From Minisyncoccota bacterium (lineage in GTDB: Bacteria > Patescibacteriota > Minisyncoccia > Phycocordibacterales > Phycocordibacteraceae): a stretch of DNA of 64,000 nucleotides. The stretch covers positions 41,984-105,983 of the forward strand of contig DATKSU010000005.1 in NCBI GenBank assembly GCA_035531495.1, given 5' to 3'. This document shows, piece by piece, positions 4,107 through 48,947 of this stretch. Under the pieces are notes generated by a model that saw nothing but the letters and a program-made list of their open reading frames with translations, did no database searches and was not told the origin of the DNA. Position 1 is the stretch's first letter. Each line of letters opens with the position of its first letter. The translations under genes were made by a program, and so were the position numbers.

Positions 4107-4180
4107 CGCGAGAGACGGGACTTGAACCCGCAACCTCCGCCGTGACAGGGCGGCGCTCTAACCAATTGAGCTACTCCCGC
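4107..4180 (-). tRNA. tRNA-Asp (GTC)
   Basis: Reverse complement GCGGGAGTAGCTCAATTGGTTAGAGCGCCGCCCTGTCACGGCGGAGGTTGCGGGTTCAAGTCCCGTCTCTCGC folds as a cloverleaf with anticodon loop CTGTCAC. 7-bp acceptor, G73, no encoded CCA. Confidence 0.9.
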
Positions 4181-4365: not shown

Positions 4366-4439
4366 TGCCGGGGGACGGAATTGAACCGTCGACCTTGGGT
4401 TTATGAATCCCATGCTCTAACCAACTGAGCTACCCCGGC
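4366..4439 (-). tRNA. tRNA-Met (CAT), elongator type (or Ile2/lysidine)
   Basis: Reverse complement GCCGGGGTAGCTCAGTTGGTTAGAGCATGGGATTCATAAACCCAAGGTCGACGGTTCAATTCCGTCCCCCGGCA. G1-C72 is paired and the anticodon loop is TTCATAA. Confidence 0.85.
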
Positions 4440-30753: not shown

Positions 30754-31341
30754 TTAGAAAAAGCTCTCGGCCAAAACGTTGGAATCGAACTGAAGTGAAA
30801 GATCGCCTCGCGTCTTGCGGCCAGTCCAGTACTCACCCTCTAGGCGGCGATTCGGTCGCTTGATAATTTTTAGGATCGCCGCACCATCATGAATAGCACT
30901 CCTATCCCAAAGGGACGCCTTCGGACGATTCGTGTAGTTATAGGTCAGATACAGATCCTCGCCGTTAGCCGTTGCGTTTATGCTGGTGGTGGTACTGTAG
31001 CTAGTCGACTCTTTCGTCATGAGAGTGATATTTATGTCCGAGAAACTCTGACGAATCACCAGAATGACAGGGACCGGTGCGATCGATTGGCCAGTTTTCG
31101 GGTCGATCCAATCGCTCTTCAATTCGCCACGCCACGTTCCACGCAAGTCTGGAACCTTAATCGGCACACTGTTCCCTACTTGAGTATCGGAGGATGTGGT
31201 CGCGGTCACTGAGGTTGGCGACGATGTTGCAACAGCACTCGACGAATTCGACGATCCTGCGGACGCTACGAGTATGACCACCAGAAAGAATCCGCCAGCG
31301 ATCCAAAATATCTTACGTGAACTCCCGATCTTCGTTGTCAT
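30754..31341 (-). CDS. hypothetical N-terminally anchored protein with Ser/Thr-rich linker and beta-rich C-terminal domain
   Basis: MTTKIGSSRKIFWIAGGFFLVVILVASAG then S/T linker and a ~130-aa domain (RGTWRGEL...YWTGRKTRGDLSLQF). AT-rich codon usage unlike the core. Confidence 0.5.
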   Translation of the reverse strand: MTTKIGSSRKIFWIAGGFFLVVILVASAGSSNSSSAVATSSPTSVTATTSSDTQVGNSVPIKVPDLRGTWRGELKSDWIDPKTGQSIAPVPVILVIRQSFSDINITLMTKESTSYSTTTSINATANGEDLYLTYNYTNRPKASLWDRSAIHDGAAILKIIKRPNRRLEGEYWTGRKTRGDLSLQFDSNVLAESFF

Positions 31342-31632
31342 ACCGCGTCAGGGTTAGGGGTAAATCCTGATGGGCGGGTAGCACAAAACCCGCTACCAGG
31401 AAGGCCTTGCGGCCTCTATAGGAGTTTCCCCCTATAACGTAAGCCACGCCCTGATAACGGGTTTTCTGTGGCTTACGATTGTCGACCATGCCCGGGGACG
31501 AATCCCGCAGGTTTAGGCCATTTCTATTCGTGTGTCGAACTTGTACATAATAGCTCGTTTTCAGCTATCCTTGTAGACCCTAGCTTAGATCTAAGGTTTT
31601 GCGAAATAGGTTACCAACAGCAAGACTTTGCC

Positions 31633-36740: not shown

Positions 36741-37253
36741 CTAATAATGGGCGTAGATACCGCGCGAGGAGAAACGCGCGCCGTTCGGGTTCGCGACCGT
36801 CGCGCAGGAGACGTTATACCCTTGAGAGAAGAGGTAGGTCGGGCCGGTCCCATTCTGCTTGTAGACCGTGACGTCCGCGCAGTGCTGGCCGGAATCGAGC
36901 GAGAGCCGCTCCGCGACGACCCATTGGGACGATGTGTACGAAACGATGCCTGTGGGAACGTCCGGCGGGTAGGAGGCGCTTCGACCGTCGCACGCCATGA
37001 GGGGTGCAGACGCCGGCTGAGGCCATGGGTACGCGAACGAATTCAGCTGCTGGTCGGCGTAGAGCACGCACTCGAGTCCTGCGTCGGCAGCGTAGAACGC
37101 GTCCTGCGACGCGAGGGCGGTCGACGAGAGGACGATCTGCTTGTAGCCGAGCGCGCCGAGTTCGAGGCCGAAGGCGAGCATCACGGACATGAAGATGACC
37201 GCGACGAGAAGCGCTATGCCGCGCTTATGCGGACGGCGGGGAGTCATTGCCAT
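36741..37253 (-). CDS. type IV pilus minor pilin/PilX-like protein
   Basis: N-terminal RGIALLVAVIFMSVMLAFGLEL hydrophobic segment. First gene after ligA in the pilin run. Confidence 0.5.
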   Translation of the reverse strand: MAMTPRRPHKRGIALLVAVIFMSVMLAFGLELGALGYKQIVLSSTALASQDAFYAADAGLECVLYADQQLNSFAYPWPQPASAPLMACDGRSASYPPDVPTGIVSYTSSQWVVAERLSLDSGQHCADVTVYKQNGTGPTYLFSQGYNVSCATVANPNGARFSSRGIYAHY

Positions 37254-37867
37254 GGCGTCAATTGGTCAGTGACAATCGCGCGCTCCGTCGTCCCGTGGAA
37301 ATCCCAGGTCACGGTCGCGACGACCCGCTCATCGTTCGGCGAGACGGCGTAGAACTGAACCGTACGCGTGTAGGGCGTCTCGACGCTGGTAACGCGCTGG
37401 GAGTAGATGGCGCCGGAATAGGAAGGCGCCGAGCCGCCGTCGAAGTAGAGCGGCGTACAGGTGCTGCCGACGGTGCATGCCTGCAGCGTGCCGAACCACC
37501 ATGATGGCAACCCAGGAGGGGTGAACCACGGGTCGGCCGTGCATGCCGAATTGACGCACTGCGAGACGGGGCTGGAGAGGAACGCGCTCCAGGCATTGGC
37601 CGAGACCGATGTCCCGCCGGCCTGATAGGCGCTCAAATAGGCATTGTCGCGTAGCGCGCGTACGTACTCGATTCCCTCTTGCGCGAGGTAGGTGGCGGTC
37701 AGCTGCTCGCGCGCGAGCTCGGTGGCGACGAGCGTGCGGTCCGCCGTGTACAAGGGGCCGGCGATGGCGAGCGCGAGTATCGCGATGGCGACGAGCGTCT
37801 CGACGAGCGTAAACGCTCGCCGCGCGTTCGCTTCGCCGGTCGCTCGCTTAGTGGTTGGCTCTCTCAT
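37244..37867 (-). CDS. type IV minor pilin (prepilin-type N-terminal domain)
   Basis: RAFTLVETLVAIAILALAIAG cleavage/methylation motif. Confidence 0.7.
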   Translation of the reverse strand: MREPTTKRATGEANARRAFTLVETLVAIAILALAIAGPLYTADRTLVATELAREQLTATYLAQEGIEYVRALRDNAYLSAYQAGGTSVSANAWSAFLSSPVSQCVNSACTADPWFTPPGLPSWWFGTLQACTVGSTCTPLYFDGGSAPSYSGAIYSQRVTSVETPYTRTVQFYAVSPNDERVVATVTWDFHGTTERAIVTDQLTPWQ

Positions 37868-37873
37868 AAAAAA

Positions 37874-38449
37874 TCAGATATCGGAACCGCGCATCGTCGC
37901 GCTGCTCTCGACCGTGAAATATTGGGTCTTCCCATGCCCGTACGAGATCTGGCCCGAAATGACGATGGTCACGCGCGCCTGCCCGTAATCGCCCTGCCGC
38001 ACTGTCTGCGCGTTATAGGAAGTGAACAGGAGCGACGTGATGTCCACGGACGAATCGGTAAGCGGCGTCGTGGCACCGGTTCTGGAATCGTACTGATCAA
38101 TCCCATTGGTCGTCGAATTCAAGAAATACTTGATGTAGTCCCCTGGCGGATCGGTCGCATCGGAAAACGAGAAATCGGTGCCCGAACAGGTGTTCGTCGT
38201 GCCGAGGCAGTAATCGAAACCCGTGCGAATCGTGCGCGTCATGTCTTCGAGCGCGAAGGAGAGGTTGTTGATGCCGGTCGTGACGGCGTGCGCTTCCCGG
38301 TCCGCGCCAATCATGATGAGGTAGGCGCCGGTCGCAATTGTCATGACGACCGCGAAAAGGCCGACGGCGACCATAAGCTCAATGAGCGTGAAGCCGGAAC
38401 GTACCGGGATGCGGTCATTGGCGAATGTCATGGCGCGGTTCATGGGCAT
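37874..38449 (-). CDS. type IV minor pilin
   Basis: SGFTLIELMVAVGLFAVVM prepilin motif. Confidence 0.75.
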   Translation of the reverse strand: MPMNRAMTFANDRIPVRSGFTLIELMVAVGLFAVVMTIATGAYLIMIGADREAHAVTTGINNLSFALEDMTRTIRTGFDYCLGTTNTCSGTDFSFSDATDPPGDYIKYFLNSTTNGIDQYDSRTGATTPLTDSSVDITSLLFTSYNAQTVRQGDYGQARVTIVISGQISYGHGKTQYFTVESSATMRGSDI

Positions 38450-39177
38450 GAGGCGGCATCGCCGTTAATCTCGCCGGTCGTCGAGACCGACACGTAGCGC
38501 GTCCCGCCCTGTGGCGAGAGGAGCGCGAGACACGCCGAGGTGTAGTACGCCGACCATGCGGGCTGCGAGAAAGTCGTACCGATGCTGATGTAGGGCGTAT
38601 CGTTCGGGCGCGAGAACACGACATCCATGCTTGTCAGGGTCGCCTGAAAGAGCGGGGTGTACCAGCCGTGTTCGCACACCCACGGGATGAGCTGCGACAC
38701 GTGTACGCAGAAATTGCTTATCGTGATGCCGTTGTTGATCATGTAGGGGGACACCTCCTGGTCCGAACCGGCCGTATAGACGCAATCGCCCGGCTTTGCA
38801 TTCGGCGCGTTCGCGCCCAAGGCGAACGGGCCGTAGCAGCTGTTCGTGTCTGGCGCCGGGGACGTATCGGCGAAGAAGATAAACGAGGAGTTCGACGAGG
38901 TATCGAAATGGAGGCCATAGCCGATGTTCGCGTTCGCGCCGAGGCCGCGCGTACCGAGGCCGTAGGTCTCGGCGGAGCGCATCGTGAGGCCGATGTCGTA
39001 CGCGGTATTCGCGAGCGTGAACGAATTGTTGAATGAGCGCTGGTTCGTGAGGACGATGGCTACCATGATGGCGATGATGGCGAGCACGACGAGCATCTCG
39101 ACGAGCGTGAATCCGCGCGCGCGGCCGCGACGTTTCGCTAGCGAGGCCACACCGCGGCGAAAGCGAAGAGGTTCCAT
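38440..39177 (-). CDS. type IV minor pilin
   Basis: RGFTLVEMLVVLAIIAIMVAI prepilin motif. 245 aa. Confidence 0.75.
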   Translation of the reverse strand: MEPLRFRRGVASLAKRRGRARGFTLVEMLVVLAIIAIMVAIVLTNQRSFNNSFTLANTAYDIGLTMRSAETYGLGTRGLGANANIGYGLHFDTSSNSSFIFFADTSPAPDTNSCYGPFALGANAPNAKPGDCVYTAGSDQEVSPYMINNGITISNFCVHVSQLIPWVCEHGWYTPLFQATLTSMDVVFSRPNDTPYISIGTTFSQPAWSAYYTSACLALLSPQGGTRYVSVSTTGEINGDAASCP

Positions 39178-39905
39178 TGTGTGAAGTACGCGAGGAGGAA
39201 GCCGGCGGCGAGGAAAGGCGCGAACGGTACCTCGCTGTTCATTCTAGAGCCCCGAGGCCTGCGCGCCAATAGCAGTATCCCGATGGCGGCGCCGATCCAG
39301 AACGAGAAAACGAAGCCGGTAAGCGCGACAGGTCCCGCGAGAAGCCCGAGGCCGAGCGTAAGCGGCGCATCGGCGAGACCCATCGCCCGCCCGCGGGAGA
39401 TGGCGTGGATGAGCGCGAGGGAGAGCGCAAGGAGCGATGCCGTGAGGAGGACGCTGAGGAACGCGTATCCTGACGGTGCGGCGAGGTATCCCGCGAGGGC
39501 GGCCGCGAGGACGAAGGCGGCGAGGACGGGCGGCGGCAGTATCTGGTGCGCGAAATCGTAGCGGACGAGCGCGAGGAGGAGTGCGAGCGAGACGAGCATG
39601 AGGGCAAGCGCGGGCGAAAGGCCGAGCTTCGCGTACGCGAGCGCGAAGAGCGCGCCGAGGACGAGCTCCGCGACCGGATCGGCGGCGGAGAGCCGGACGC
39701 CGCAGCAGCGGGAGCGGCCGCGAAGCGCGAGGTACGAGACGACGGGGATGAGCGCCGCAGGCGGGAGCGGCGCGCCGCACGCGTCGCAGCGGGAGCGGCC
39801 CGCGAGGAATCCCTCCCCCGTGTAGAGCCGCGCCGCGACGACGCCGATGAAGCTCGCGACGACGACGCCGAGGGCGAAGAGCGCGGCCGCGATGAGGAGC
39901 GTCAT
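39138..39905 (-). CDS. pilD: prepilin peptidase (A24 family)
   Basis: N-terminal Cys pairs (RCDACG; RCCG), polytopic, and a GLADAPLTLGLG active-site region. Confidence 0.9.
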   Translation of the reverse strand: MTLLIAAALFALGVVVASFIGVVAARLYTGEGFLAGRSRCDACGAPLPPAALIPVVSYLALRGRSRCCGVRLSAADPVAELVLGALFALAYAKLGLSPALALMLVSLALLLALVRYDFAHQILPPPVLAAFVLAAALAGYLAAPSGYAFLSVLLTASLLALSLALIHAISRGRAMGLADAPLTLGLGLLAGPVALTGFVFSFWIGAAIGILLLARRPRGSRMNSEVPFAPFLAAGFLLAYFTQWNLFAFAAVWPR

Positions 39906-39963
39906 GGGTGCATGATAGCAAGCTCCCGCCTGGGGCAGGAGCTGCTGCGCCCCGGGACGGGGG

Positions 39964-40407
39964 CTACGGGCACGCGGTTTCGGCGCTCGTCAGCGGGGAC
40001 GGCTCATACTTGCCGACGCTCTCACTGTCGATGCACCACGAGTTCGACGTCGCAGTGAGCTCGGCGGAGACGGCGTACGCCGTCCCGTTCGCGCTCACGT
40101 TGCAGACGATGGAGCCCGGGCCGTTCGCGGCGTCGGCGCTCGCAATCGCCGAATGGATGGTCGGGTCGCTGAACATGTTGTCGGCCGCCGCGCAGTTGCT
40201 TTCCGTCGAGGCGTTCGTCCCATAATGGTAGCCGTTGCCGTCGAAGTAGATTTCAGCTTGGCTGCGGATGGTCGAGAGGTTCGACTGGACCGCCGCATCG
40301 TTGCCCTTCTCTCGGGCCGTATTGAGGGACGCGAGCACGACCGCCGAGAGGATGCCGATGATGGCGATAACGACGAGGAGCTCGATGAGGGTAAAGCCTC
40401 TGCGCAT
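39964..40407 (-). CDS. pilA: type IVa major pilin paralog 1
   Basis: MRRG|FTLIELLVVIAIIGILSAVVLASLNTAREKGNDAAVQSNL with a C-terminal Cys pair. Start moved to the short leader (track ORF begins 162 nt upstream). Confidence 0.85.
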   Translation of the reverse strand: MRRGFTLIELLVVIAIIGILSAVVLASLNTAREKGNDAAVQSNLSTIRSQAEIYFDGNGYHYGTNASTESNCAAADNMFSDPTIHSAIASADAANGPGSIVCNVSANGTAYAVSAELTATSNSWCIDSESVGKYEPSPLTSAETACP

Positions 40408-40481
40408 GGTGCCGCCTATCATAGCAGATGAAACGAACACGCCCCGAGGACGGGGCGTGTTCGAGAACGATACAGAGCGTC

Positions 40482-40955
40482 TTAAGGGCACGTGGTGATA
40501 GCGGATGCCGGGAAGGTTCCATTGGTTCCGGACTCGAGTTTCGACGCGCCGGTCGAATCCGTGCACCACCAGGTATTAGCGGCTGCCGTCAGCGCGGCAG
40601 CGACGATGAACGACTGGCCGGCAGAGCCAGTGGCGCAGGCGATGTTGCCCTGGCCGTTATCAGCATAGGCTGACTTCATCGCTTGCAGGATGACCGGATC
40701 TGAGAACATGCTCGCCGCAGCCGTAGTGCAGGCCGCGCCGGTCGACCATGTCAAGGTGCCGAAGCTGTTGCTGTTGTCGCCGTAGTAGATTTCCGCCTGC
40801 GTGCGGACGGTGTTGAGGTCCGATTCGACCGCCGCATCGTTGCCCTTCTGGCGGGCCGTATTGAGGGACGCGAGCACGACCGCCGAGAGGATGCCGATGA
40901 TGGCGATAACGACGAGGAGCTCGATGAGGGTGAAGCCTCGGAAACGATTTTTCAT
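40482..40955 (-). CDS. pilA: type IVa major pilin paralog 2
   Basis: MKNRFRG|FTLIELLVVIAIIGILSAVVLASLNTARQKGNDAAVESDL. The first ~40 mature residues are identical to paralog 1, the C-terminal two thirds diverge. Confidence 0.85.
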   Translation of the reverse strand: MKNRFRGFTLIELLVVIAIIGILSAVVLASLNTARQKGNDAAVESDLNTVRTQAEIYYGDNSNSFGTLTWSTGAACTTAAASMFSDPVILQAMKSAYADNGQGNIACATGSAGQSFIVAAALTAAANTWWCTDSTGASKLESGTNGTFPASAITTCP

Positions 40956-41045
40956 GGTAAATATTGAAGCTCTGTGCATACGGTTAATATCAGAAGTATA
41001 CGGCACTGGCGGGGGTCGCGGGACGGGGTTGTGGATAACCCCGCC

Positions 41046-42251
41046 CTAGATGGCGCTCGCGAGGTTGTAGATAGGCATGAGGACGGCGGCAAGGAGGACA
41101 CCGACGCCGACGCCGAGCATGACGATCATGATGGGTTCGATGAGGCCGACGAGGGTGTCGACCGAGTTCGTCACCTCGCGGCTGTAGAACTTCGCGAGCG
41201 TGGTGAGGATCTTTCCGAGCTCGCCCGTCTCCTCGCCGACGCGCGTCATCGCGACCATGATGCCCGGCATCTCCGGATGCTTGCTCATCGCGCTCGCGAT
41301 GGACGAGCCGCCCTTCACGTCGAGCTCGATGTCTATGAGCGCGGCTGCGTAAGCGGCATTCCCCACCACCGACGCCGATATCTCGAGCGCTTCGATGACC
41401 GAGACGCCGGACATGAGCATCGTGGAGAAGTTGTCGGCGATGCGCGCGAGATAGAGCTTCTTGTAGAGATCGCCGACGTACGGCGTCGAGATCTTCAGCG
41501 TGTCGAGGATGAGCTTGCCGCGCTCGGTCTTGCGCATCTGCCAGAGGTAGAAGCCGAGCGCGATGAGGCCGATGAGGATGAAGATGCCATACTCGACGAG
41601 GAAGTTCGAGAACCCGATGATGATGCGCGTATAGAGCGGCACCTGGGTGCCGGAGTCGATGAGCACGGCGCTGATCTTCGGGATGACGAGGGTGAGCATG
41701 AGCCCCATGACGCCGAAGAAGACGGCGACGACGAAGATCGGATAGATGAGCGCGTTCTCGGCCTTGCTCATGACCTCATAGCTGCGGTCGAGGTAGTCGG
41801 CGAGGTAGACGAACGTCTCCGACAACTTGCCGGATTCCTCGCCCGCGCGGACCATGTTGACATAGAAGACGGAGAAGACTTCCGGGTGGCGCGCGAGCGC
41901 CTTGCTGATGGAGCTGCCGCCCTGGAGGTCGTCTCCCACCACCGAGAGCACGTCGGCGAGGCGCTTGTTCGTCACCTCGGCGGCGAGGAGGCGGAAGACG
42001 CGCAGCGCCGACACCTGCGCTTCGAAGAGGGTCGAGATCTGTCGCGAGAGGATGACGACGTCCTTGTTCGAGACGCGGTTGAGGAACGGGATATCCATTT
42101 GGAGGACGGATCGCTTCTCGCCCGACTCTATCTTCGAGATGATGAGGTTGCGCCGCTGGAGCGCGGAGACGGCGACTTCCTGCGACGGCGCCTCGATGGA
42201 GCCGTCCCGCTCGTGCCCGTCCTGGTCGATGGCGTGGTAGGTGAAGAGCAT
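41046..42251 (-). CDS. pilC: type IV pilus platform protein (GspF family)
   Basis: 401 aa with two GspF repeats and three TM segments. Confidence 0.95.
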   Translation of the reverse strand: MLFTYHAIDQDGHERDGSIEAPSQEVAVSALQRRNLIISKIESGEKRSVLQMDIPFLNRVSNKDVVILSRQISTLFEAQVSALRVFRLLAAEVTNKRLADVLSVVGDDLQGGSSISKALARHPEVFSVFYVNMVRAGEESGKLSETFVYLADYLDRSYEVMSKAENALIYPIFVVAVFFGVMGLMLTLVIPKISAVLIDSGTQVPLYTRIIIGFSNFLVEYGIFILIGLIALGFYLWQMRKTERGKLILDTLKISTPYVGDLYKKLYLARIADNFSTMLMSGVSVIEALEISASVVGNAAYAAALIDIELDVKGGSSIASAMSKHPEMPGIMVAMTRVGEETGELGKILTTLAKFYSREVTNSVDTLVGLIEPIMIVMLGVGVGVLLAAVLMPIYNLASAI

Positions 42252-42280: not shown

Positions 42281-43342
42281 TCATAGGTAGCGCTCGAAGG
42301 TCTTCGGGTCCATCGCGTGCTCGTACGCGTGCTCGACCGTTACCTCCCCGCGCCGCACGAAGTCCGCGAGGAGGCGATCCATGCTGATCATGCCATCCTG
42401 GGAACCCGTCTGGATGACGGAGGCGATCTCGTGCGTCTGCTTCTCGCGGATGAGGTTCGCCACGGCGTTGTTATTGATGAGAAGCTCGTATGCGGGGATG
42501 AGCCCGCCCGAGATGCGCGGAATGAGCCGCTGGGAGAAGACGCCGGCGAGAGACCCCGAGAGCTGCACGCGCACCTGGTCCTGCTGCTCGGCCGGGAACA
42601 TGTCGATGATGCGGTCGATCGTCTGCGCCGCGTTATTCGTGTGGAGCGTGGAGAAGACGAGGTGGCCAGTCTCGGCGGCCGTCACGGCGGCCGAGATGGT
42701 CTCGTGGTCGCGCATCTCGCCGACCATGATGACGTCGACATCCTCGCGGAAAGCGCCCTGGAGCGCCGTATGGAAGTCCGGCGTATCGATATGCACTTCG
42801 CGCTGGTGGACGAGCGATTTCTTCGGCATGAACAGGTACTCGACCGGGTCTTCGATCGTGAGGATATGCTGCGCTTCGACCTCGTTGATGTGCTCGAGCA
42901 TCGAAGCGAGCGTCGTCGACTTCCCTTGCCCGACGGGACCGACGACGAGGAAGAATCCCTGCGCGCGCTGCGTGAACGTCTCGAGGATTGGCGGCAGGTT
43001 AAGCTCGGCAAGCGTCGCGATCTTGTTCGGGATAAGCCGGGAGGCCATCGCAATCGTGCCTTGCGTGCGATAGCCGTTGATACGGAACCGCGAGTCCTCA
43101 TGGTGCGCGTACGAGAGGTCGACGGCCTGGTCCTTCTCGAACGTCTCCCAGCGACCTTCCGGCACGATTGAACGCAACATCACTTCGGTGTCTGCGGCCG
43201 TGAACGCTTGGTATCGCGTGAGCGGCACGAGCTCGCCTGAGACGCGGATGACCGGCGACCCGCCCGCGAAGATATGCAAGTCGGAGCCGCCTTGGGCGAT
43301 GACGAGGTCGAAGAGCTCCTTGAGGCGCTTGTCGATCGTCAT
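42281..43342 (-). CDS. pilT: twitching-motility retraction ATPase
   Basis: Walker A GPVGQGKST; Asp/His boxes. Start moved to MTIDKRL; 94 Arg/Ser-rich residues upstream are removed. Confidence 0.9.
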   Translation of the reverse strand: MTIDKRLKELFDLVIAQGGSDLHIFAGGSPVIRVSGELVPLTRYQAFTAADTEVMLRSIVPEGRWETFEKDQAVDLSYAHHEDSRFRINGYRTQGTIAMASRLIPNKIATLAELNLPPILETFTQRAQGFFLVVGPVGQGKSTTLASMLEHINEVEAQHILTIEDPVEYLFMPKKSLVHQREVHIDTPDFHTALQGAFREDVDVIMVGEMRDHETISAAVTAAETGHLVFSTLHTNNAAQTIDRIIDMFPAEQQDQVRVQLSGSLAGVFSQRLIPRISGGLIPAYELLINNNAVANLIREKQTHEIASVIQTGSQDGMISMDRLLADFVRRGEVTVEHAYEHAMDPKTFERYL

Positions 43343-43343
43343 G

Positions 43344-43742
43344 TTAGCTCGACGCGGGCTTCCCGCCCTCGATGATGCGCACGACTTCAGCGAGGACTTC
43401 CGACGGGATGGCCGAGGCCTTGATGATGTATCCGTCGGCCTTGAGCTGCTTCGCCTTCTCGATGTCGGAATCCTGTCCTTGGTTCGAGAGGATGATGATC
43501 TTGCTGTCCGACGCGAGCTTCTCCTTGCGGATCGTCTGCAGCGCTTCGAAGCCGTCGATGCCCGGCATAATGAGGTCGAGCAGGATAGCGTCCGGGGCCG
43601 GCACCCCGCCTTTCCGGAGCGCATCGAGAAGCTTCTCTCCGCCGTCGAACACGTTCACCTCATGTCCCGCGCTCCTGAACTTGACCGCGTACAGGTCGAG
43701 CAGGAATCGGTCATCGTCGACGAGGTACACGCGATAGGCCAT
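43344..43742 (-). CDS. CheY-like single-domain response regulator (PilH-like)
   Basis: LVDDD...D(ILLDLIMP)...K. 132 aa, between pilB and pilT. Confidence 0.85.
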   Translation of the reverse strand: MAYRVYLVDDDRFLLDLYAVKFRSAGHEVNVFDGGEKLLDALRKGGVPAPDAILLDLIMPGIDGFEALQTIRKEKLASDSKIIILSNQGQDSDIEKAKQLKADGYIIKASAIPSEVLAEVVRIIEGGKPASS

Positions 43743-43756
43743 TGCTAGCCAGTATA

Positions 43757-45544
43757 CTATGCCGCGCCGTCAATATCTTCCGGCTCGGGGAAAAGCTCGC
43801 CGCCGAGCGTATTCACCTCTTCGAACGGGATGGCGCCGGCGAGCGCTTTCACTATCGCGTCTTCGCGCATCGTGCGCATGCCGCCCGCGCGGGCCGCGGC
43901 ATAGATGTTCTCCTCCGTCGGCTGCTTGAGTACGGCTTCCTCGAGCGGTTTGTTCATCTGCAGTATCTCGAAGACGCCTGTGCGGCCGCGCGTCCCGTCC
44001 GCGCACTCCGCCGTCGGCTTCGCATGATAAAAATTCTTGAACGGCGGGAGCTTCGCGCGGTATTTCTCCGGCAAATCCTCGAACTCCTGGTCGAGGAGCC
44101 CTTTGAGGCTCTCGGAAACGGGGAACGGCTCACCCGCGCCGTCGCACAGCTTCCGGACGAGACGCTGGCCGATGACGGCGACCAAGGTCGGCGCGATGAG
44201 GAACGGGTCGACGCGCATGTCGATGAGGCGCGGAATGGCGCCCGCGGCCGTGTTCGTGTGGATGGTCGAGAAGACGAGGTGGCCCGTAAGCGCGGCTTGC
44301 ACGGCGAGCGCTGCGGTCTCCTTGTCGCGAATCTCGCCGACCATGATGACGTCCGGATCCTGGCGCAGGATGCTGCGGAGTCCGTTCGCGAACGTGTAGC
44401 CGATTTCCGGCCGCACCTGGCTCTGCGAGACGCCGGGCACTTCGTATTCGACCGGATCCTCGAGCGAAACGACGTTCGACGTCTCGCGGTCGAGCTCGGA
44501 CATCATGGCGAAGAGGGACGTCGACTTGCCGGAACCCGTCGGCCCGGCGATGAGGATGATGCCGTACGGGACCTTCATGACCTCGCGGACGACCTTGAGC
44601 TGCGCCTCGTCGAACCCGACCGACTCGAGGGTTGCGGTGGCGGCCGACTGGTCGAGGATGCGCATCACGACCTTCTCGCCGTACTGCGTCGGGAAGGTGG
44701 AGACGCGGAAGTCGATGCGGCGCTTGTCGACCGTCGCCGAGAAGCGGCCGTCCTGCGGCTTGCGCTTCTCGTCGAGGCGCAGGCGCGCGAGGATCTTGAT
44801 GCGCGCGACGACCGCCTCGTGAACCTTGCTCGGCAGCTCGAGTGACGTGTGGAGGTCGCCATCGACGCGGAAGCGGACGCGTGTCTTCTTCGGCGTCGGC
44901 TCGACGTGGATGTCGGAAGAGTGCCCTTCGATGGCATACCGCAAGATGGTGGAGACGATCTTCGTCACCGGCGCATCCTCCTTGAGCGCTTCGGAATGGC
45001 CCGAAAGGTCGAGTGATTCGGCGCCCGTCGCGGCTTCATCGGCTGGCGCCGGGGTCCCGGAAACGTTCGCCGACGGCTTCGTCGTCGTCTCGTACTCTGA
45101 GAGCGCCTTGCCGACTTCGCCTGAGAGATTCTGGTACGCCTCGATGACGCGATCGAAATCCTGCTTCGTAATGAGGAAGACCTTATACGGGATGGATGAT
45201 TCTCCCGAGATGAATTGCAGCGCATCGAGCGCTTCGATGTTGTCGGGATCGACGATGCCGACCTCGAGAGCTCCGTCGGCCATGTCGAGGGGCACGATGC
45301 CGTAATGGCGTGCCGAATCGACCGGGATATAGCTGAACGTCTCTTCGTCGGCCGGCGAATCGCCGAGGATGCGCGTCGGCAGACCGTACTCCTTCCCCGC
45401 TTCCGCGAGCGCGTCGGGGAGCGAGATACCCTGTTCGGACAGCGCCTCCTCGAGCGGCCGCTTCTTCGCGAGCTCCGCTTCGACCGTCGCGCGGCCTTGC
45501 GCCGAGAGCATGCCCTTGTCGACGAGTAGTGCGAGGAGATTCAT
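43757..45544 (-). CDS. pilB: type IV pilus assembly ATPase (GspE family)
   Basis: Walker A GPTGSGKST plus a tetracysteine-region equivalent. 595 aa. Confidence 0.95.
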   Translation of the reverse strand: MNLLALLVDKGMLSAQGRATVEAELAKKRPLEEALSEQGISLPDALAEAGKEYGLPTRILGDSPADEETFSYIPVDSARHYGIVPLDMADGALEVGIVDPDNIEALDALQFISGESSIPYKVFLITKQDFDRVIEAYQNLSGEVGKALSEYETTTKPSANVSGTPAPADEAATGAESLDLSGHSEALKEDAPVTKIVSTILRYAIEGHSSDIHVEPTPKKTRVRFRVDGDLHTSLELPSKVHEAVVARIKILARLRLDEKRKPQDGRFSATVDKRRIDFRVSTFPTQYGEKVVMRILDQSAATATLESVGFDEAQLKVVREVMKVPYGIILIAGPTGSGKSTSLFAMMSELDRETSNVVSLEDPVEYEVPGVSQSQVRPEIGYTFANGLRSILRQDPDVIMVGEIRDKETAALAVQAALTGHLVFSTIHTNTAAGAIPRLIDMRVDPFLIAPTLVAVIGQRLVRKLCDGAGEPFPVSESLKGLLDQEFEDLPEKYRAKLPPFKNFYHAKPTAECADGTRGRTGVFEILQMNKPLEEAVLKQPTEENIYAAARAGGMRTMREDAIVKALAGAIPFEEVNTLGGELFPEPEDIDGAA

Positions 45545-45990: not shown

Positions 45991-46551
45991 TCACCGGAGC
46001 CAGTACAGGCGCAGGCTCATCTGGTAAATGTAAATCCCGGTATCGGAGCCCTTCACGGAAAGCTGTCGGACATCGAGGAGCCGTTCGCTCAACTCGACGC
46101 CGCGGAGGAACTTCTGAAACGCCGCGTACGATCCCGTCGCGGAGACGACCAGGTCGACTGACCCGATGCCGCCGGTACCACCCGTCGAGAGGCCTGCCGG
46201 CGCGCCCGCGGACGCGGAACTCGCCGCCGGCGCCGAGACGTTCACGTTCGAGAGCGTGAGGCCGGAGCGGGCGGCGAGCGCATCAAGGTCGAGGATGATG
46301 CTCACGTTATCGACTGAATCCGGCAGGAGCGTCGTGAGCCGCGCGATGTCCGCGGGGTTCATGGCGTCGCGTTCCGACACGAGCTGGCTCTCTTCGGTCG
46401 CGTAGGCCTGCGCCGCCGCGAGCGCTTGATCGTCGCTCGCGATCGCGTTCTTCGTGCCGGCGATGCTCCCGTTCCACGTCGGACCGACGTACCCCACGAA
46501 GAGGGCGATGGCGGCTATGACTGAGATCAGCGGATAGATGCGGCTCATCAT
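45991..46551 (-). CDS. pilO: PilO-like pilus assembly protein
   Basis: N-terminal anchor plus a periplasmic-type domain. Overlaps pilN by 4 nt. Confidence 0.6.
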   Translation of the reverse strand: MMSRIYPLISVIAAIALFVGYVGPTWNGSIAGTKNAIASDDQALAAAQAYATEESQLVSERDAMNPADIARLTTLLPDSVDNVSIILDLDALAARSGLTLSNVNVSAPAASSASAGAPAGLSTGGTGGIGSVDLVVSATGSYAAFQKFLRGVELSERLLDVRQLSVKGSDTGIYIYQMSLRLYWLR

Positions 46552-47180
46552 GGCAATGTCGTCGTCGCGGCCGGCGTCGCGGCCGGCGTCGCGGAAGACG
46601 GCGAGAAGGCGACAAGCTTCGGATCAAGCGCCGCCGCGAGCGCGAACGAGACGGAACCGTCTTGGGGATTGACCGCGATGTCCGAGAAGATGGCGTCTTT
46701 AATCCGCCCGTCCGCCGCGAGCGCCGACGATACCGCCGCGAGCGAATTGAAATCTTTCGCGATGCCGGCGCCCGTCACGCTGACGGCTCCCTTATCGTCA
46801 GTGGCGACGCTCAGCTCCGAGATGCGGACAGAGACGGGGAGCTGCGCGTCGAGATCGTCGAAGAAGCCGGAAAGCGCGATATGGTTCGCGAGCAGCTGTT
46901 CGCCTGCCTTGAGGCGGTCGCTCAACCGCAGGAAGCTCTCGACTTTCGCCGAGTCTATCGATGCCCGAGCGTTCGCGAGCTGGACATCCTTCCCGGCAAG
47001 CACGGAATCGAGTATGTGCCCATAGATGAATAAGCCGATTGCAATCGCGAGGACGACGCCGATAGCTCCGTACGCGACGAACCCGAGCGCGCTGCCCAAG
47101 TCGCTCGTATTGAACCGGCGCCGAGACGTCGAATCGGGTCTCGGGACGAATGAGGTCGGGATGTTGGGAATGAGTGCCAC
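46548..47180 (-). CDS. pilN: PilN-like pilus assembly protein
   Basis: Single TM (LGFVAYGAIGVVLAIAIGLFIY) with a coiled-coil periplasmic part. Follows pilM. Confidence 0.6.
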   Translation of the reverse strand: MALIPNIPTSFVPRPDSTSRRRFNTSDLGSALGFVAYGAIGVVLAIAIGLFIYGHILDSVLAGKDVQLANARASIDSAKVESFLRLSDRLKAGEQLLANHIALSGFFDDLDAQLPVSVRISELSVATDDKGAVSVTGAGIAKDFNSLAAVSSALAADGRIKDAIFSDIAVNPQDGSVSFALAAALDPKLVAFSPSSATPAATPAATTTLP

Positions 47181-47254: not shown

Positions 47255-48325
47255 TCACGCTTCGTCGAGCTTGCGGAGCGCGATGCCGACCGCGACCGCG
47301 AACTCCGGGCCTATCTCTTTCAGGACCGGCCGCATGAATGCCGGCGCTTCGGTCTTCGCGAACGGATCCGCGACGCGCACGTCGATGGAGAATACTGTCT
47401 TCGCGTATGACTCGAGGTCCCGTGTCACGCCGCCACCGCCGGTGAGAATGATGGCGCTGATCGCCTTGTGGTGCGTCGTCTCGTACTGGATGAGGACGCG
47501 CCGCACTTCCGCGAGGATGCGCGAGAACGTGAGTTCCGGCGACTCGAGCCCCGAATCGTCGCGGAGCCCCGCCTCTTTCTTCAACTGTTCGGCGCGCGCG
47601 AACGGGATTTCCTGCGCAGCGGCGATCGCCCGCGTGATGTCCTGGCTGCCGACGCTGATAGCGTGCGAGAACGCGACGATACCGCTCTCGACGACGTAGG
47701 TCTTCGTCGACGCAGCGCCAACGTCGACGACCATGACGGGCTTCACGAGCTCGTCGACGACGGCGCGGATGGTGCTGAAGATCTCGATCTCGTAGAAGCT
47801 CGCGGCAAGCTTCGCGCCCGAGACGACCCGCTGCAGGAAACGCAGCTCGTCGTTATGCACAGCAACGAGCAGCACGTCGACCTTGTCGTGCACGGCGCCA
47901 TGCGCCGGATCGCGCGACGGCACGATGAACCAGTCGAGCTGCACCTCGCTCACGGGTACCGGGATGTATTTGCGCGCTTCAAGCTCGATGACCGTCTTCT
48001 GCTCGGCGACGTTCTTGCGATACGGCAGTTCAACGAGCGTGAGCAGGGAGCGCGCGAAAGGGATGGAGACGCCGCAGTTCTCCGTCGTCACCTTCGCCTC
48101 CCGGAGGAGGTCTCTCAAGGTCTCGATGACCTGCTCGGCGGAGAGGTTCGTCGCCTGGCCGACTTCGACGCCGCCGTACGGGCCGAGCGCGAGCTCGCCG
48201 TACGTCTCGAGCACCGCCTGGCTGTGCTCTTTGCGCAGCTGCACGACTTTCAAGGACGAAGAGCCGATATCGACGCCGAGGACGCTCTTCCCTTTGCTTC
48301 CGAAAAGACCGCCGAGGAACGACAT
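47255..48325 (-). CDS. pilM: type IV pilus assembly ATPase-like protein PilM (actin/FtsA fold)
   Basis: GVDIGSSSLKVV phosphate-1 motif. Start moved to MSFLGG; the track ORF adds 43 non-coding-like residues. Confidence 0.85.
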   Translation of the reverse strand: MSFLGGLFGSKGKSVLGVDIGSSSLKVVQLRKEHSQAVLETYGELALGPYGGVEVGQATNLSAEQVIETLRDLLREAKVTTENCGVSIPFARSLLTLVELPYRKNVAEQKTVIELEARKYIPVPVSEVQLDWFIVPSRDPAHGAVHDKVDVLLVAVHNDELRFLQRVVSGAKLAASFYEIEIFSTIRAVVDELVKPVMVVDVGAASTKTYVVESGIVAFSHAISVGSQDITRAIAAAQEIPFARAEQLKKEAGLRDDSGLESPELTFSRILAEVRRVLIQYETTHHKAISAIILTGGGGVTRDLESYAKTVFSIDVRVADPFAKTEAPAFMRPVLKEIGPEFAVAVGIALRKLDEA

Positions 48326-48341
48326 GTAGGATAATACTATC

Positions 48342-48947
48342 ATGCTGTACTGGCTCGATGCGCTCTTCCCTCCCCGTGCAGACGAGCGCGCGCTGCGCGG
48401 CGTCTCGGCAGCTGCGTTCGCCGCGCTCTCGGACGCCCGGCGCACGGACTGCACGCGCCCCGCGACGATCGCGCTCCTGCCCTTCTCCGATGCGCGCGTG
48501 CGCGCTGCCGTGCACGAGGCGAAATATCACGGAAGCGAGAAGGCGTTCGCGCTCCTCGCCGCGGCGCTCGCGCGTTTCCTGCGCGACGAAACGATGCCGG
48601 GGCCGCGCATCCTCGTCCCAGTGCCGCTCGGCACGTCGCGGCGGCGGGAGCGCGGCTACAATCAAGTCGAAGAAGTCGCGCGGCGGGTAGGGGCGGAGCT
48701 CGGCATCGCGGTCGATGCCGAGCTCCTCGCGCGCACGCGCGAGACCGCCTCGCAGACCGCGCTTGGCCGCCGCGAGCGCGAAGAGAACATGCGCGGCGCC
48801 TTCGGCGCCGCGCATCCCGCGTCCCCGTCGATGACGTATATCCTTCTCGACGACGTCCTCACGACGGGCGCGACCCTACAGGCGGCCATCGACGCGCTCG
48901 CGAATGCGGGCGTGGCGCGCATCCTCCCGGTCGCGCTCGCACATTAA
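48342..48947 (+). CDS. comF: ComF-family phosphoribosyltransferase-domain protein (no N-terminal zinc finger)
   Basis: ILLDDVLTTGATL PRPP-binding motif. 201 aa. Confidence 0.8.
   Translation: MLYWLDALFPPRADERALRGVSAAAFAALSDARRTDCTRPATIALLPFSDARVRAAVHEAKYHGSEKAFALLAAALARFLRDETMPGPRILVPVPLGTSRRRERGYNQVEEVARRVGAELGIAVDAELLARTRETASQTALGRREREENMRGAFGAAHPASPSMTYILLDDVLTTGATLQAAIDALANAGVARILPVALAH

Follow-up and report, generated by a model that had tools for sequence, protein, structure and literature searches.

Several bacteria carry tandem or linked major-pilin paralogs that use a single type IV pilus machinery, such as pilAI and pilAII of Pseudomonas stutzeri and pilA1 and pilA2 of Synechocystis. 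In Legionella pneumophila, the major-pilin paralogs PilA1 and PilA2 share one machinery; they are 72% identical, and their differences are spread along the proteins (PMC13170364). In Thermus thermophilus, PilA4 and PilA5 form wide and narrow pili, again with one machinery (PMC7203116). Among the Patescibacteria, the saccharibacterium TM7x has PilA1 and PilA2 at separate loci, with two machineries and with thick and thin pili; in cultivated Saccharibacteria, type IV pili mediate host binding and motility (PMC11623550). In this work, we focus on two adjacent pilin genes, W_1 and W_2, in a stretch of 64,000 nucleotides from a Minisyncoccota bacterium (contig DATKSU010000005.1, positions 41,984 to 105,983), the whole of which is called the window below. 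As a whole, we consider it likely that the two are old functional pilin paralogs in a single type IV pilus (T4P) operon, that their 5' block has recently been gene-converted, and that they are probably regulated separately.

Recombination among pilin genes is known in different forms. In the Neisseria pilE/pilS system, the donors are silent copies that are promoterless and truncated at the 5' end, the variable region is the one converted, and a G-quadruplex (G4) element is required. In Moraxella, the site-specific invertase Piv acts on inverted repeats, and alternative pilin C-termini are combined with a constant N-terminus behind one promoter and one 5' end. Outside pilins, tufA/tufB is the textbook example of concerted evolution. 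The role of the Neisseria pilin N-terminal domain is treated in PMC4877100. Segmental gene conversion leading to concerted evolution of bacterial paralogs has been surveyed (PMC6053082), and the word 'pilin' has no occurrence in the text of that survey.

Both W_1 and W_2 are minus-strand genes arranged head to tail (Table 1), and both are complete, each with its own start codon, leader and full N-terminus. Two adjacent pilin genes with these leaders had been reported from an earlier reading of the sequence (the original prediction), which gave the lengths as 147 and 158 aa; both genes are indeed present, and the length is right for W_2, whereas W_1 has 157 aa. W_1 begins with MKNRFRG followed by FTLIELLVVIAIIGIL, and W_2 with MRRG followed by FTLIELLVVIAIIGIL. 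After the leader, both proteins read FTLIELLVVIAIIGILSAVVLASLNTAR, then Q or E, then KGNDAAV. Each thus has a class III signal, with a short basic leader, Gly-1, Phe+1 and Glu+5 in a hydrophobic stretch of about 20 residues, and each matches the Pfam family N_methyl (PF07963; E = 1e-9 for W_1 and 1e-8 for W_2), the bit scores of the two pilins being 37.9 and 34.5 versus a cut-off of 21.2. The NCBI label for both proteins is 'type II secretion system protein [Candidatus Paceibacterota bacterium]'.

The predicted fold is that of a type IVa-like pilin: a long alpha1 helix on a four-stranded antiparallel beta-sheet, with an alpha-beta loop. The AlphaFold2 (AF2) model of W_2, with a predicted local distance difference test score (pLDDT) of 91.5, has the same architecture as W_1. 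Four Cys are found in each protein, at mature positions 69, 100, 124 and 149 in W_1 and 68, 98, 121 and 142 in W_2, and in alignments of 69 sequences all four are invariant or nearly so across the family. The last pair encloses the C-terminal 21-25 residues, which agrees with the terminal Cys-bracketed loop described originally; that description had overlooked the second pair, which lies further upstream in the sequence. Both heads are acidic (isoelectric point about 4.1-4.2) and rich in Gly, Ala, Ser and Thr, and a comparison of the net charge of the two head domains, each acidic, gave no hint of a DNA-binding paralog. The signal, the predicted fold and the operon context support the assignment of W_1 and W_2 as tandem, type IVa-like paralogs of the major-pilin type, which share a conserved assembly helix and differ in their heads. 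The two resemble PilA1 and PilA2 of TM7x in being Patescibacteria major pilins with a PilD-type signal, a small 'lollipop' fold, a composition rich in Gly, Ala, Ser and Thr, and a similar T4P operon content; unlike the TM7x genes, they are adjacent in one machinery cluster.

Alignment of the two genes at the nucleotide level, which had been proposed as a check, sets the boundary of the shared DNA. The block opens 2 nt ahead of the Gly-1 codon, closes with the Val+36 codon and comprises 113 nt with 3 mismatches (97.3%), including a perfect core of 80 nt, so that the figure of about 130 bp of identical DNA given previously was too high. At lower stringency, the block appears as a direct repeat of 173 nt with 89% identity and a spacing of 539 nt. 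At the protein level, the identity previously ascribed to the first 40 or so mature residues holds from +1 to +36 except for Q/E at +29. Beyond +36, the proteins align end to end with 50 of 107 residues identical (47%) and all four Cys equivalent; contrary to what had been thought, the globular domains have therefore not diverged completely. Overall, the protein identity is 57%.

The N-terminal identity of the proteins is, by itself, uninformative about this pair, because it is found throughout the lineage: in dozens of Paceibacteria genomes of 36-62% GC, the pilin gene or genes that come first after pilC encode these 36 or so N-terminal residues with hardly any change. The nucleotide sequence is more telling. 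Gly-1 to Val+36 is a stretch of 37 codons, of which 36 specify the same amino acid in both genes; at 34 of these 36 the codon itself is also identical, versus 15.7 predicted by codon usage in the window (exact P = 4e-11). Outside the block, 26 of the 48 same-residue codons are identical versus 21.7 expected, which amounts to saturation. Accordingly, the synonymous divergence (dS, calculated by the NG86 method of Nei and Gojobori) rises from 0.068 in the block to 0.49 in codons +37 to +53 and 1.19 in the globular part; the nonsynonymous divergence (dN) in the block is 0.013. In contrast to Legionella PilA1 and PilA2, W_1 and W_2, besides having a Patescibacteria host, are similar in a sharply segmental manner, with nucleotide identities of 97% (block) and 55% (head). 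The blocks of W_1 and W_2 differ at 3 of 111 nt, versus at least 13 in a comparison with any pilin of another genome, genomes of similar GC included; orthologs in similar-GC genomes that encode the same amino acids differ at 13-24 of 111 nt, and the median difference between genomes is 25 nt. The identity of the block is far above the expectation from amino-acid conservation, and the block has therefore undergone gene conversion; the outcome that had been named beforehand as contradicting recombination, no excess of nucleotide identity, is not the one found.

PilC was used as an anchor to fetch 160 related loci (L numbers below). The best PilC matches are metagenome-assembled genomes with 75-83% identity, the top value being 82-83% in the genome scan and in the metagenome scan alike; these relatives show that the bacterium belongs to the uncultured Patescibacteria (CPR) of the Paceibacteria type. 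In database searches, W_2 is only the 101st match to W_1, and W_1 is absent from the best 120 matches to W_2, more than 120 database clusters being nearer to W_2. Orthologs in other genomes are 63-71% identical to each pilin, versus 57% between W_1 and W_2; the nearest ortholog of W_1 (63% identity) is in L161, a single-pilin locus. A tree built by neighbour joining (200 bootstraps) from the C-terminal domains of 51 pilins of relatives places W_2 in a clade of second-position genes only (42%), within which a subclade with L003_2, L008_2 and L143_2 is recovered in 135 of 200 bootstraps (68%). W_1 clusters mostly with first-position genes, and W_1 and W_2 are sisters in 6 of 200 bootstraps (3%). 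The leader type also tracks position: the first gene has M[YH]KNR[SF]RG, and the second has the short form MKKxRG or MRRG. In addition, quartet sites were counted against ten two-gene partner genomes. In the N-terminal block, 7-20 sites favour the grouping by genome and 0-1 the grouping by ortholog, whereas in the C-terminal domain the ortholog grouping is ahead for five of the ten partners. The simplest reading is that the duplication is ancestral and was followed by recent gene conversion limited to the 5' block.

The same pattern recurs in relatives. Of 21 independent tandem pairs from relatives whose PilC is at least 75% identical, ten, the window pair among them, have a perfect 5' run of 50-102 nt, which in every case begins no more than a few nt from the Gly-1 codon: 80 nt in the window, 102 in L142, 69 in L164, 68 in L007 and in L093, 66 in L099, 65 in L090, 52 in L092, 51 in L008 and 50 in L102. 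When first genes are compared with second genes across genomes (n = 544), the longest run has a median of 14 nt and a maximum of 42 nt. In 20 of the 24 pairs listed, the best-matching segment starts at most 9 nt from the Gly-1 codon, that is, at the onset of homology, and such segments end between about +70 and +130. The remaining pairs differ as much as unrelated genomes do, so conversion is episodic. Two mosaic genes, L083_2 and L090_2, combine the second-position leader MKKQRG with a W_1-type head (47% identity versus 35-37% to the W_2 type); in the course of evolution, leaders and heads have therefore also been recombined through exchange across the block.

The number of major-pilin genes in the clade varies from one to three. 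Three tandem major-type genes are seen in L093/L133 (1562-3259), L036 and L048/L121; the middle gene of L093 begins with GTG and is overlooked by a scan for ATG only. The pair of L013 and the triplet of L036 are near-identical recent duplicates. Two high-GC relatives have an extra pilin of 185 aa with the same N-terminus and a long Arg-rich leader (L009, 1256-1813, and L098, 781-1338, both on the minus strand of their loci); its gene lies about 4 kb upstream from pilC, on the opposite strand, and no counterpart was seen in the window. We also considered single-pilin relatives as deletion chimeras with the leader of gene 1 and the head of gene 2. L010_1 leans that way, with mean identities of 42% versus 38% to the two head types, but the idea was rejected because this difference is too small to support it.

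Among the other explanations, the one that survives best is cassette exchange, in which a head is imported from another position or another genome by a crossover inside the block, so that the imported gene keeps the resident block sequence. This belongs to the same class of events as conversion, but the donor is exogenous DNA. It would fit the mosaic genes, the scattering of head types over positions in the C-domain tree, the location of the nearest W_1 ortholog in a one-pilin locus, and the fact that transformation and allelic exchange mutagenesis work in cultivated Saccharibacteria (PMC11623550). We nevertheless regard it as unlikely for this pair: W_2 falls in the second-position clade, as vertical descent predicts, there are no closer relatives from which to name a donor, and on present data the process is inseparable from intrachromosomal conversion.

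A recent tandem duplication after which the heads diverged very rapidly under adaptation, with the 5' block simply unchanged as yet, is much harder to maintain, even though copy number varies in relatives and near-identical recent duplicates occur elsewhere. Such a duplication predicts silent sites that are equally young along the whole gene, and the dS of 1.19 in the head versus 0.07 in the block is incompatible with this; because the dS of the head is saturated, W_1 and W_2 are not a recent duplication. Furthermore, each paralog is closer to pilins of other genomes than to its neighbour, and leader type and C-domain type are kept by position across genomes. We therefore consider this explanation very unlikely.

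The intergenic regions bear on how the two genes are expressed. An intrinsic-terminator-like hairpin lies between W_1 and W_2; its predicted RNA fold has a minimum free energy of -35.7 kcal/mol (z = -4.2), a value matched by 0 of 200 shuffles. The inter-pilin spacer of the window is long, as are those of L008 and L011, in which comparable hairpins occur. Most relatives have 22-44 nt between the pilin genes, without a hairpin, and co-transcription is therefore implied there. The extended -10-like motif TGCTATGAT upstream of W_2, at which L011 has TGCTACAAT, may be W_2's own promoter and would yield a near-leaderless mRNA. Another sequence that resembles an extended -10, TGCTATCAT, is located before the prepilin peptidase gene (about 39913-39921, minus strand). 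Both TGCTATGAT and TGCTATCAT are only 6-10 nt upstream of start codons, and there is no Shine-Dalgarno sequence, which suggests that near-leaderless mRNAs occur in this organism.

For W_1, 34 upstream regions were aligned by eye. A -10-like motif, CGTACAAT or CGTATACT, is conserved about 35-40 nt before the ATG of the first pilin in nearly all relatives and is a candidate promoter. The motif TATCCACA(C/G)CC, just after the pilC stop codon and about 70-80 nt ahead of the first pilin gene, is also conserved in nearly all relatives (L001-L011 and L081-L145, at the same position). It is too distant from the -10-like element for a -35 and may bind a regulator, perhaps the response regulator of the operon. 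Given the conserved putative promoter of W_1, the terminator-like hairpin and the -10-like motif of W_2, the genes look like separate transcription units, and they are probably regulated differently.

Could the repeats serve programmed variation, that is, reversible switching, an on/off choice between the genes, or antigenic variation of the Neisseria type? Direct repeats of 80-113 nt can recombine, and copy number differs among relatives. However, both genes are complete, W_2 has its own promoter-like motif, and a strong terminator hairpin separates the two. Since the repeats are direct, a crossover between them, a possible but unproven event, would remove 539 bp and produce a hybrid gene; this is irreversible and does not allow toggling. 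No invertase or recombinase domain was found in the open reading frames (ORFs) scanned between 32.4 and 54.4 kb, no G4 motif (four runs of G3+ with N1-7 between them) on either strand of 39801-41300, and a search for a 5'-truncated silent cassette found none. The locus resembles pilE/pilS in the non-reciprocal recombination between pilin genes of one genome and in the conserved N-terminus with a variable head. It differs in that both genes are complete, in the lack of a G4 motif in the region scanned, and in that the constant region is converted rather than the variable one, which is the opposite of what antigenic-variation systems do. Similarly, as in Moraxella, a single constant N-terminal coding part is common to two alternative pilin C-termini, but here the repeats are direct, the genes are two complete ones, and the scanned ORFs encode no invertase. 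Programmed variation is thus hardly credible. Of the original interpretation, the tandem major-pilin paralogs and the gene conversion of their block are supported, and recombinational switching has no support. The pair is a clear, fairly ordinary case of segmental gene conversion and not a switching device.

An explanation without any recombination, in which extreme purifying selection on the alpha1-N helix and shared codon bias keep the block identical, fares worse still. It does account fully for the amino-acid identity, which the near-invariance of the N-terminal 36 residues across Paceibacteria leads one to expect, and GC at third codon positions (GC3) is high in the window's genome. However, the observed number of identical codons is more than double the number that this codon usage predicts, and the synonymous sites vary freely between genomes of similar GC that encode the same residues, which shows that there is no constraint at the nucleotide level; we consider it extremely improbable. 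Finally, an assembly artefact, in which two strain alleles of one locus were joined through a shared repeat, is just as improbable: the source is evidently a metagenome-assembled genome, but the junction is unique (terminator hairpin, promoter-like motif, different leader) and cannot be created by a collapsed or mis-joined repeat, and tandem pairs arranged in this way, with leaders that depend on position, recur in more than 20 independent assemblies produced by different studies.

We therefore return to ancestral paralogs with a recently converted 5' block. Several points weigh against this reading. The support in the C-domain phylogeny is moderate (42% for the second-position clade and 68% for the subclade), and in the quartet counts for the C-terminal domain the genome grouping is ahead for three of the ten partners, with a tie for one. 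In low-GC relatives, the by-genome signal could come partly from shared codon bias, although such bias is argued against here by the codon-usage test in the window and by the comparisons with similar-GC genomes. The genome and metagenome scans found no relative with a PilC identity above 83%, a distance too large for dating the conversion or telling its direction. A consensus promoter scan found no sigma-70-type site near W_1 or W_2; TGCTATGAT was not called in it because no -35 is present, and the proposed promoter of W_2 consists of a -10-like motif only. Finally, expression, co-assembly and present-day recombination of the two genes are points that we infer.

The features of concerted evolution are nonetheless present: within the tract, the paralogs of one genome are more similar to each other than orthologs are between genomes, dS is low in the tract only, and outside the tract the genes group with their orthologs, the last with moderate support. 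As in other such paralogs, the process has recurred across lineages. The pair is unlike the usual cases in that the tract, of about 70-130 nt, is very short and covers one functional module of a surface protein, with the rest of the gene diverging.

These observations suggest the following course of events. At least a dozen species-level relatives would have split after the duplication, and the heads would have diverged to silent-site saturation. Homology-dependent non-reciprocal recombination between the two direct repeats would then have made the first 113 or so coding bases of the mature protein nearly identical. The converted segment is predicted to encode the hydrophobic alpha1-N helix, the core of the filament, and this stretch may be the only region where strong purifying selection keeps the paralogs alike enough to recombine. 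Because recombinable homology is limited to the alpha1-N stretch, the tract starts at the junction of leader and mature protein and fades after about +36 to +53. With the same assembly helix on both subunits, the same PilB/PilC/PilD machinery could process and polymerise either, and each subunit would display a distinct acidic surface rich in Gly, Ala, Ser and Thr; the two may build alternative or mixed filaments, or one of them may be a subunit of low abundance.

A more far-reaching idea, which we find doubtful, is that the alpha1-N block is a site of 'portable homology' across the clade, at which heads are repeatedly exchanged between tandem positions and genomes by cassette shuffling. It includes the likely uptake of DNA by the cells with these same pili. 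If it is true, shuffling diversifies the surface for host attachment or phage escape, and the recurrent 5' homogenisation is its footprint.

The pilin genes sit in a complete minus-strand T4P cluster, in which pilB, pilC, pilD, pilT and pilM lie together at 39.1-48.5 kb. The order is pilMNO, pilB, a response regulator, pilT, pilC, W_1, W_2, pilD and minor pilins, and LigA and a GatA-like amidase come after the cluster (Table 1). The scanned part of the window showed no further set of genes for T4P assembly. The matches to PilN and to PilO/T2SSM_b are weak and under their curated cut-offs, and Peptidase_A24 on pilD, with 20.4 bits, is also under its cut-off. The response regulator has its counterpart (Response_reg, 134 aa) at the same position in L161 and L162. 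For pilT, the mechanical ORF list gives a protein of 447 aa, which contains an out-of-frame read through the response-regulator gene; the true start is probably the internal ATG at 43342, opening MTIDKRL, which gives 353 aa, as in L161. The 5' ends of the three minor-pilin-like genes are only 72-75% identical to the block and lie outside the homogenised segment.

Table 1. Coordinates of the pilin genes, their shared block, putative signals and neighbouring T4P genes in the window
Feature	Position	Strand	Remarks
W_1, first major-type prepilin gene	40482..40955	-	157 aa; P0001 in the database; leader MKNRFRG, before Phe+1 and Glu+5
W_2, second major-type prepilin gene	39964..40407	-	147 aa; P0101 in the database; leader MRRG, before Phe+1 and Glu+5
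Homogenised 5' block, W_1 copy	40827..40939	-	80-nt perfect core 40852-40931
Homogenised 5' block, W_2 copy	40288..40400	-	80-nt perfect core 40313-40392
Intrinsic-terminator-like hairpin between W_1 and W_2	40434..40463	-	13-bp stem, 10 G-C pairs, 4-nt loop, tail TTTCATC
TGCTATGAT, extended -10-like motif	40418..40426	-	10 nt upstream of W_2 start codon; read from sequence
CGTATACT, -10-like element	40995..41002	-	About 40 nt upstream of W_1 start codon
TATCCACA, conserved motif	41030..41037	-	Just after pilC stop, about 75-80 nt upstream of W_1
pilC (platform protein)	41046..42251	-	Pfam T2SSF, E = 2e-53
pilT-like retraction ATPase	42281..43342	-	Pfam T2SSE
Single-domain response regulator, between pilB and pilT	43344..43742	-	ORF, 132 aa
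pilB-like assembly ATPase (MshEN and T2SSE)	43757..45544	-	Pfam E = 1e-118
pilO-like	45991..46551	-	
pilN-like	46548..47180	-	
pilM	47255..48454	-	Pfam PilM_2, E = 1e-40
Prepilin peptidase pilD	39138..39905	-	Pfam A24_N_bact, E = 1e-21
Three minor-pilin-like genes	38440..39177, 37874..38431, 37244..37867	-	Pfam N_methyl, E = 1e-8 to 2e-6; motif scan

Elsewhere in the window, a LOOT RNA (Rfam RF03000, 77.5 bits versus a gathering score of 46.4) was found at 31401-31519 on the minus strand, directly upstream of an ORF on the same strand (30754-31341) that carries a Cap15 cyclic-dinucleotide-receptor domain (Pfam PF18153, E = 4e-22). The Cap15 domain is known from defence effectors of the cyclic-oligonucleotide-based anti-phage signalling system (CBASS) type. 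In this LOOT/Cap15 stretch, GC3 is below that of the neighbouring genes. Two tRNA genes at 4107-4180 and 4366-4439 (minus strand), 259 nt apart and with equal Rfam scores of 71.8 bits, are probably a tandem duplicate.

The ultrasmall, host-dependent Patescibacteria have few conserved surface machines, and type IV pili are among them. Genomes of the Paceibacteria type commonly have one to three tandem major-pilin genes, with several old head types and ongoing recombination in the shared 5' block. The picture is one in which the main surface filament is varied without altering the assembly interface. In practice, pilin trees and orthology calls that include the N-terminal 40 or so codons are misled by conversion, and caution is needed with them. 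The known views of pili and of gene conversion are left unchanged by this locus, and both are extended to a poorly studied lineage.

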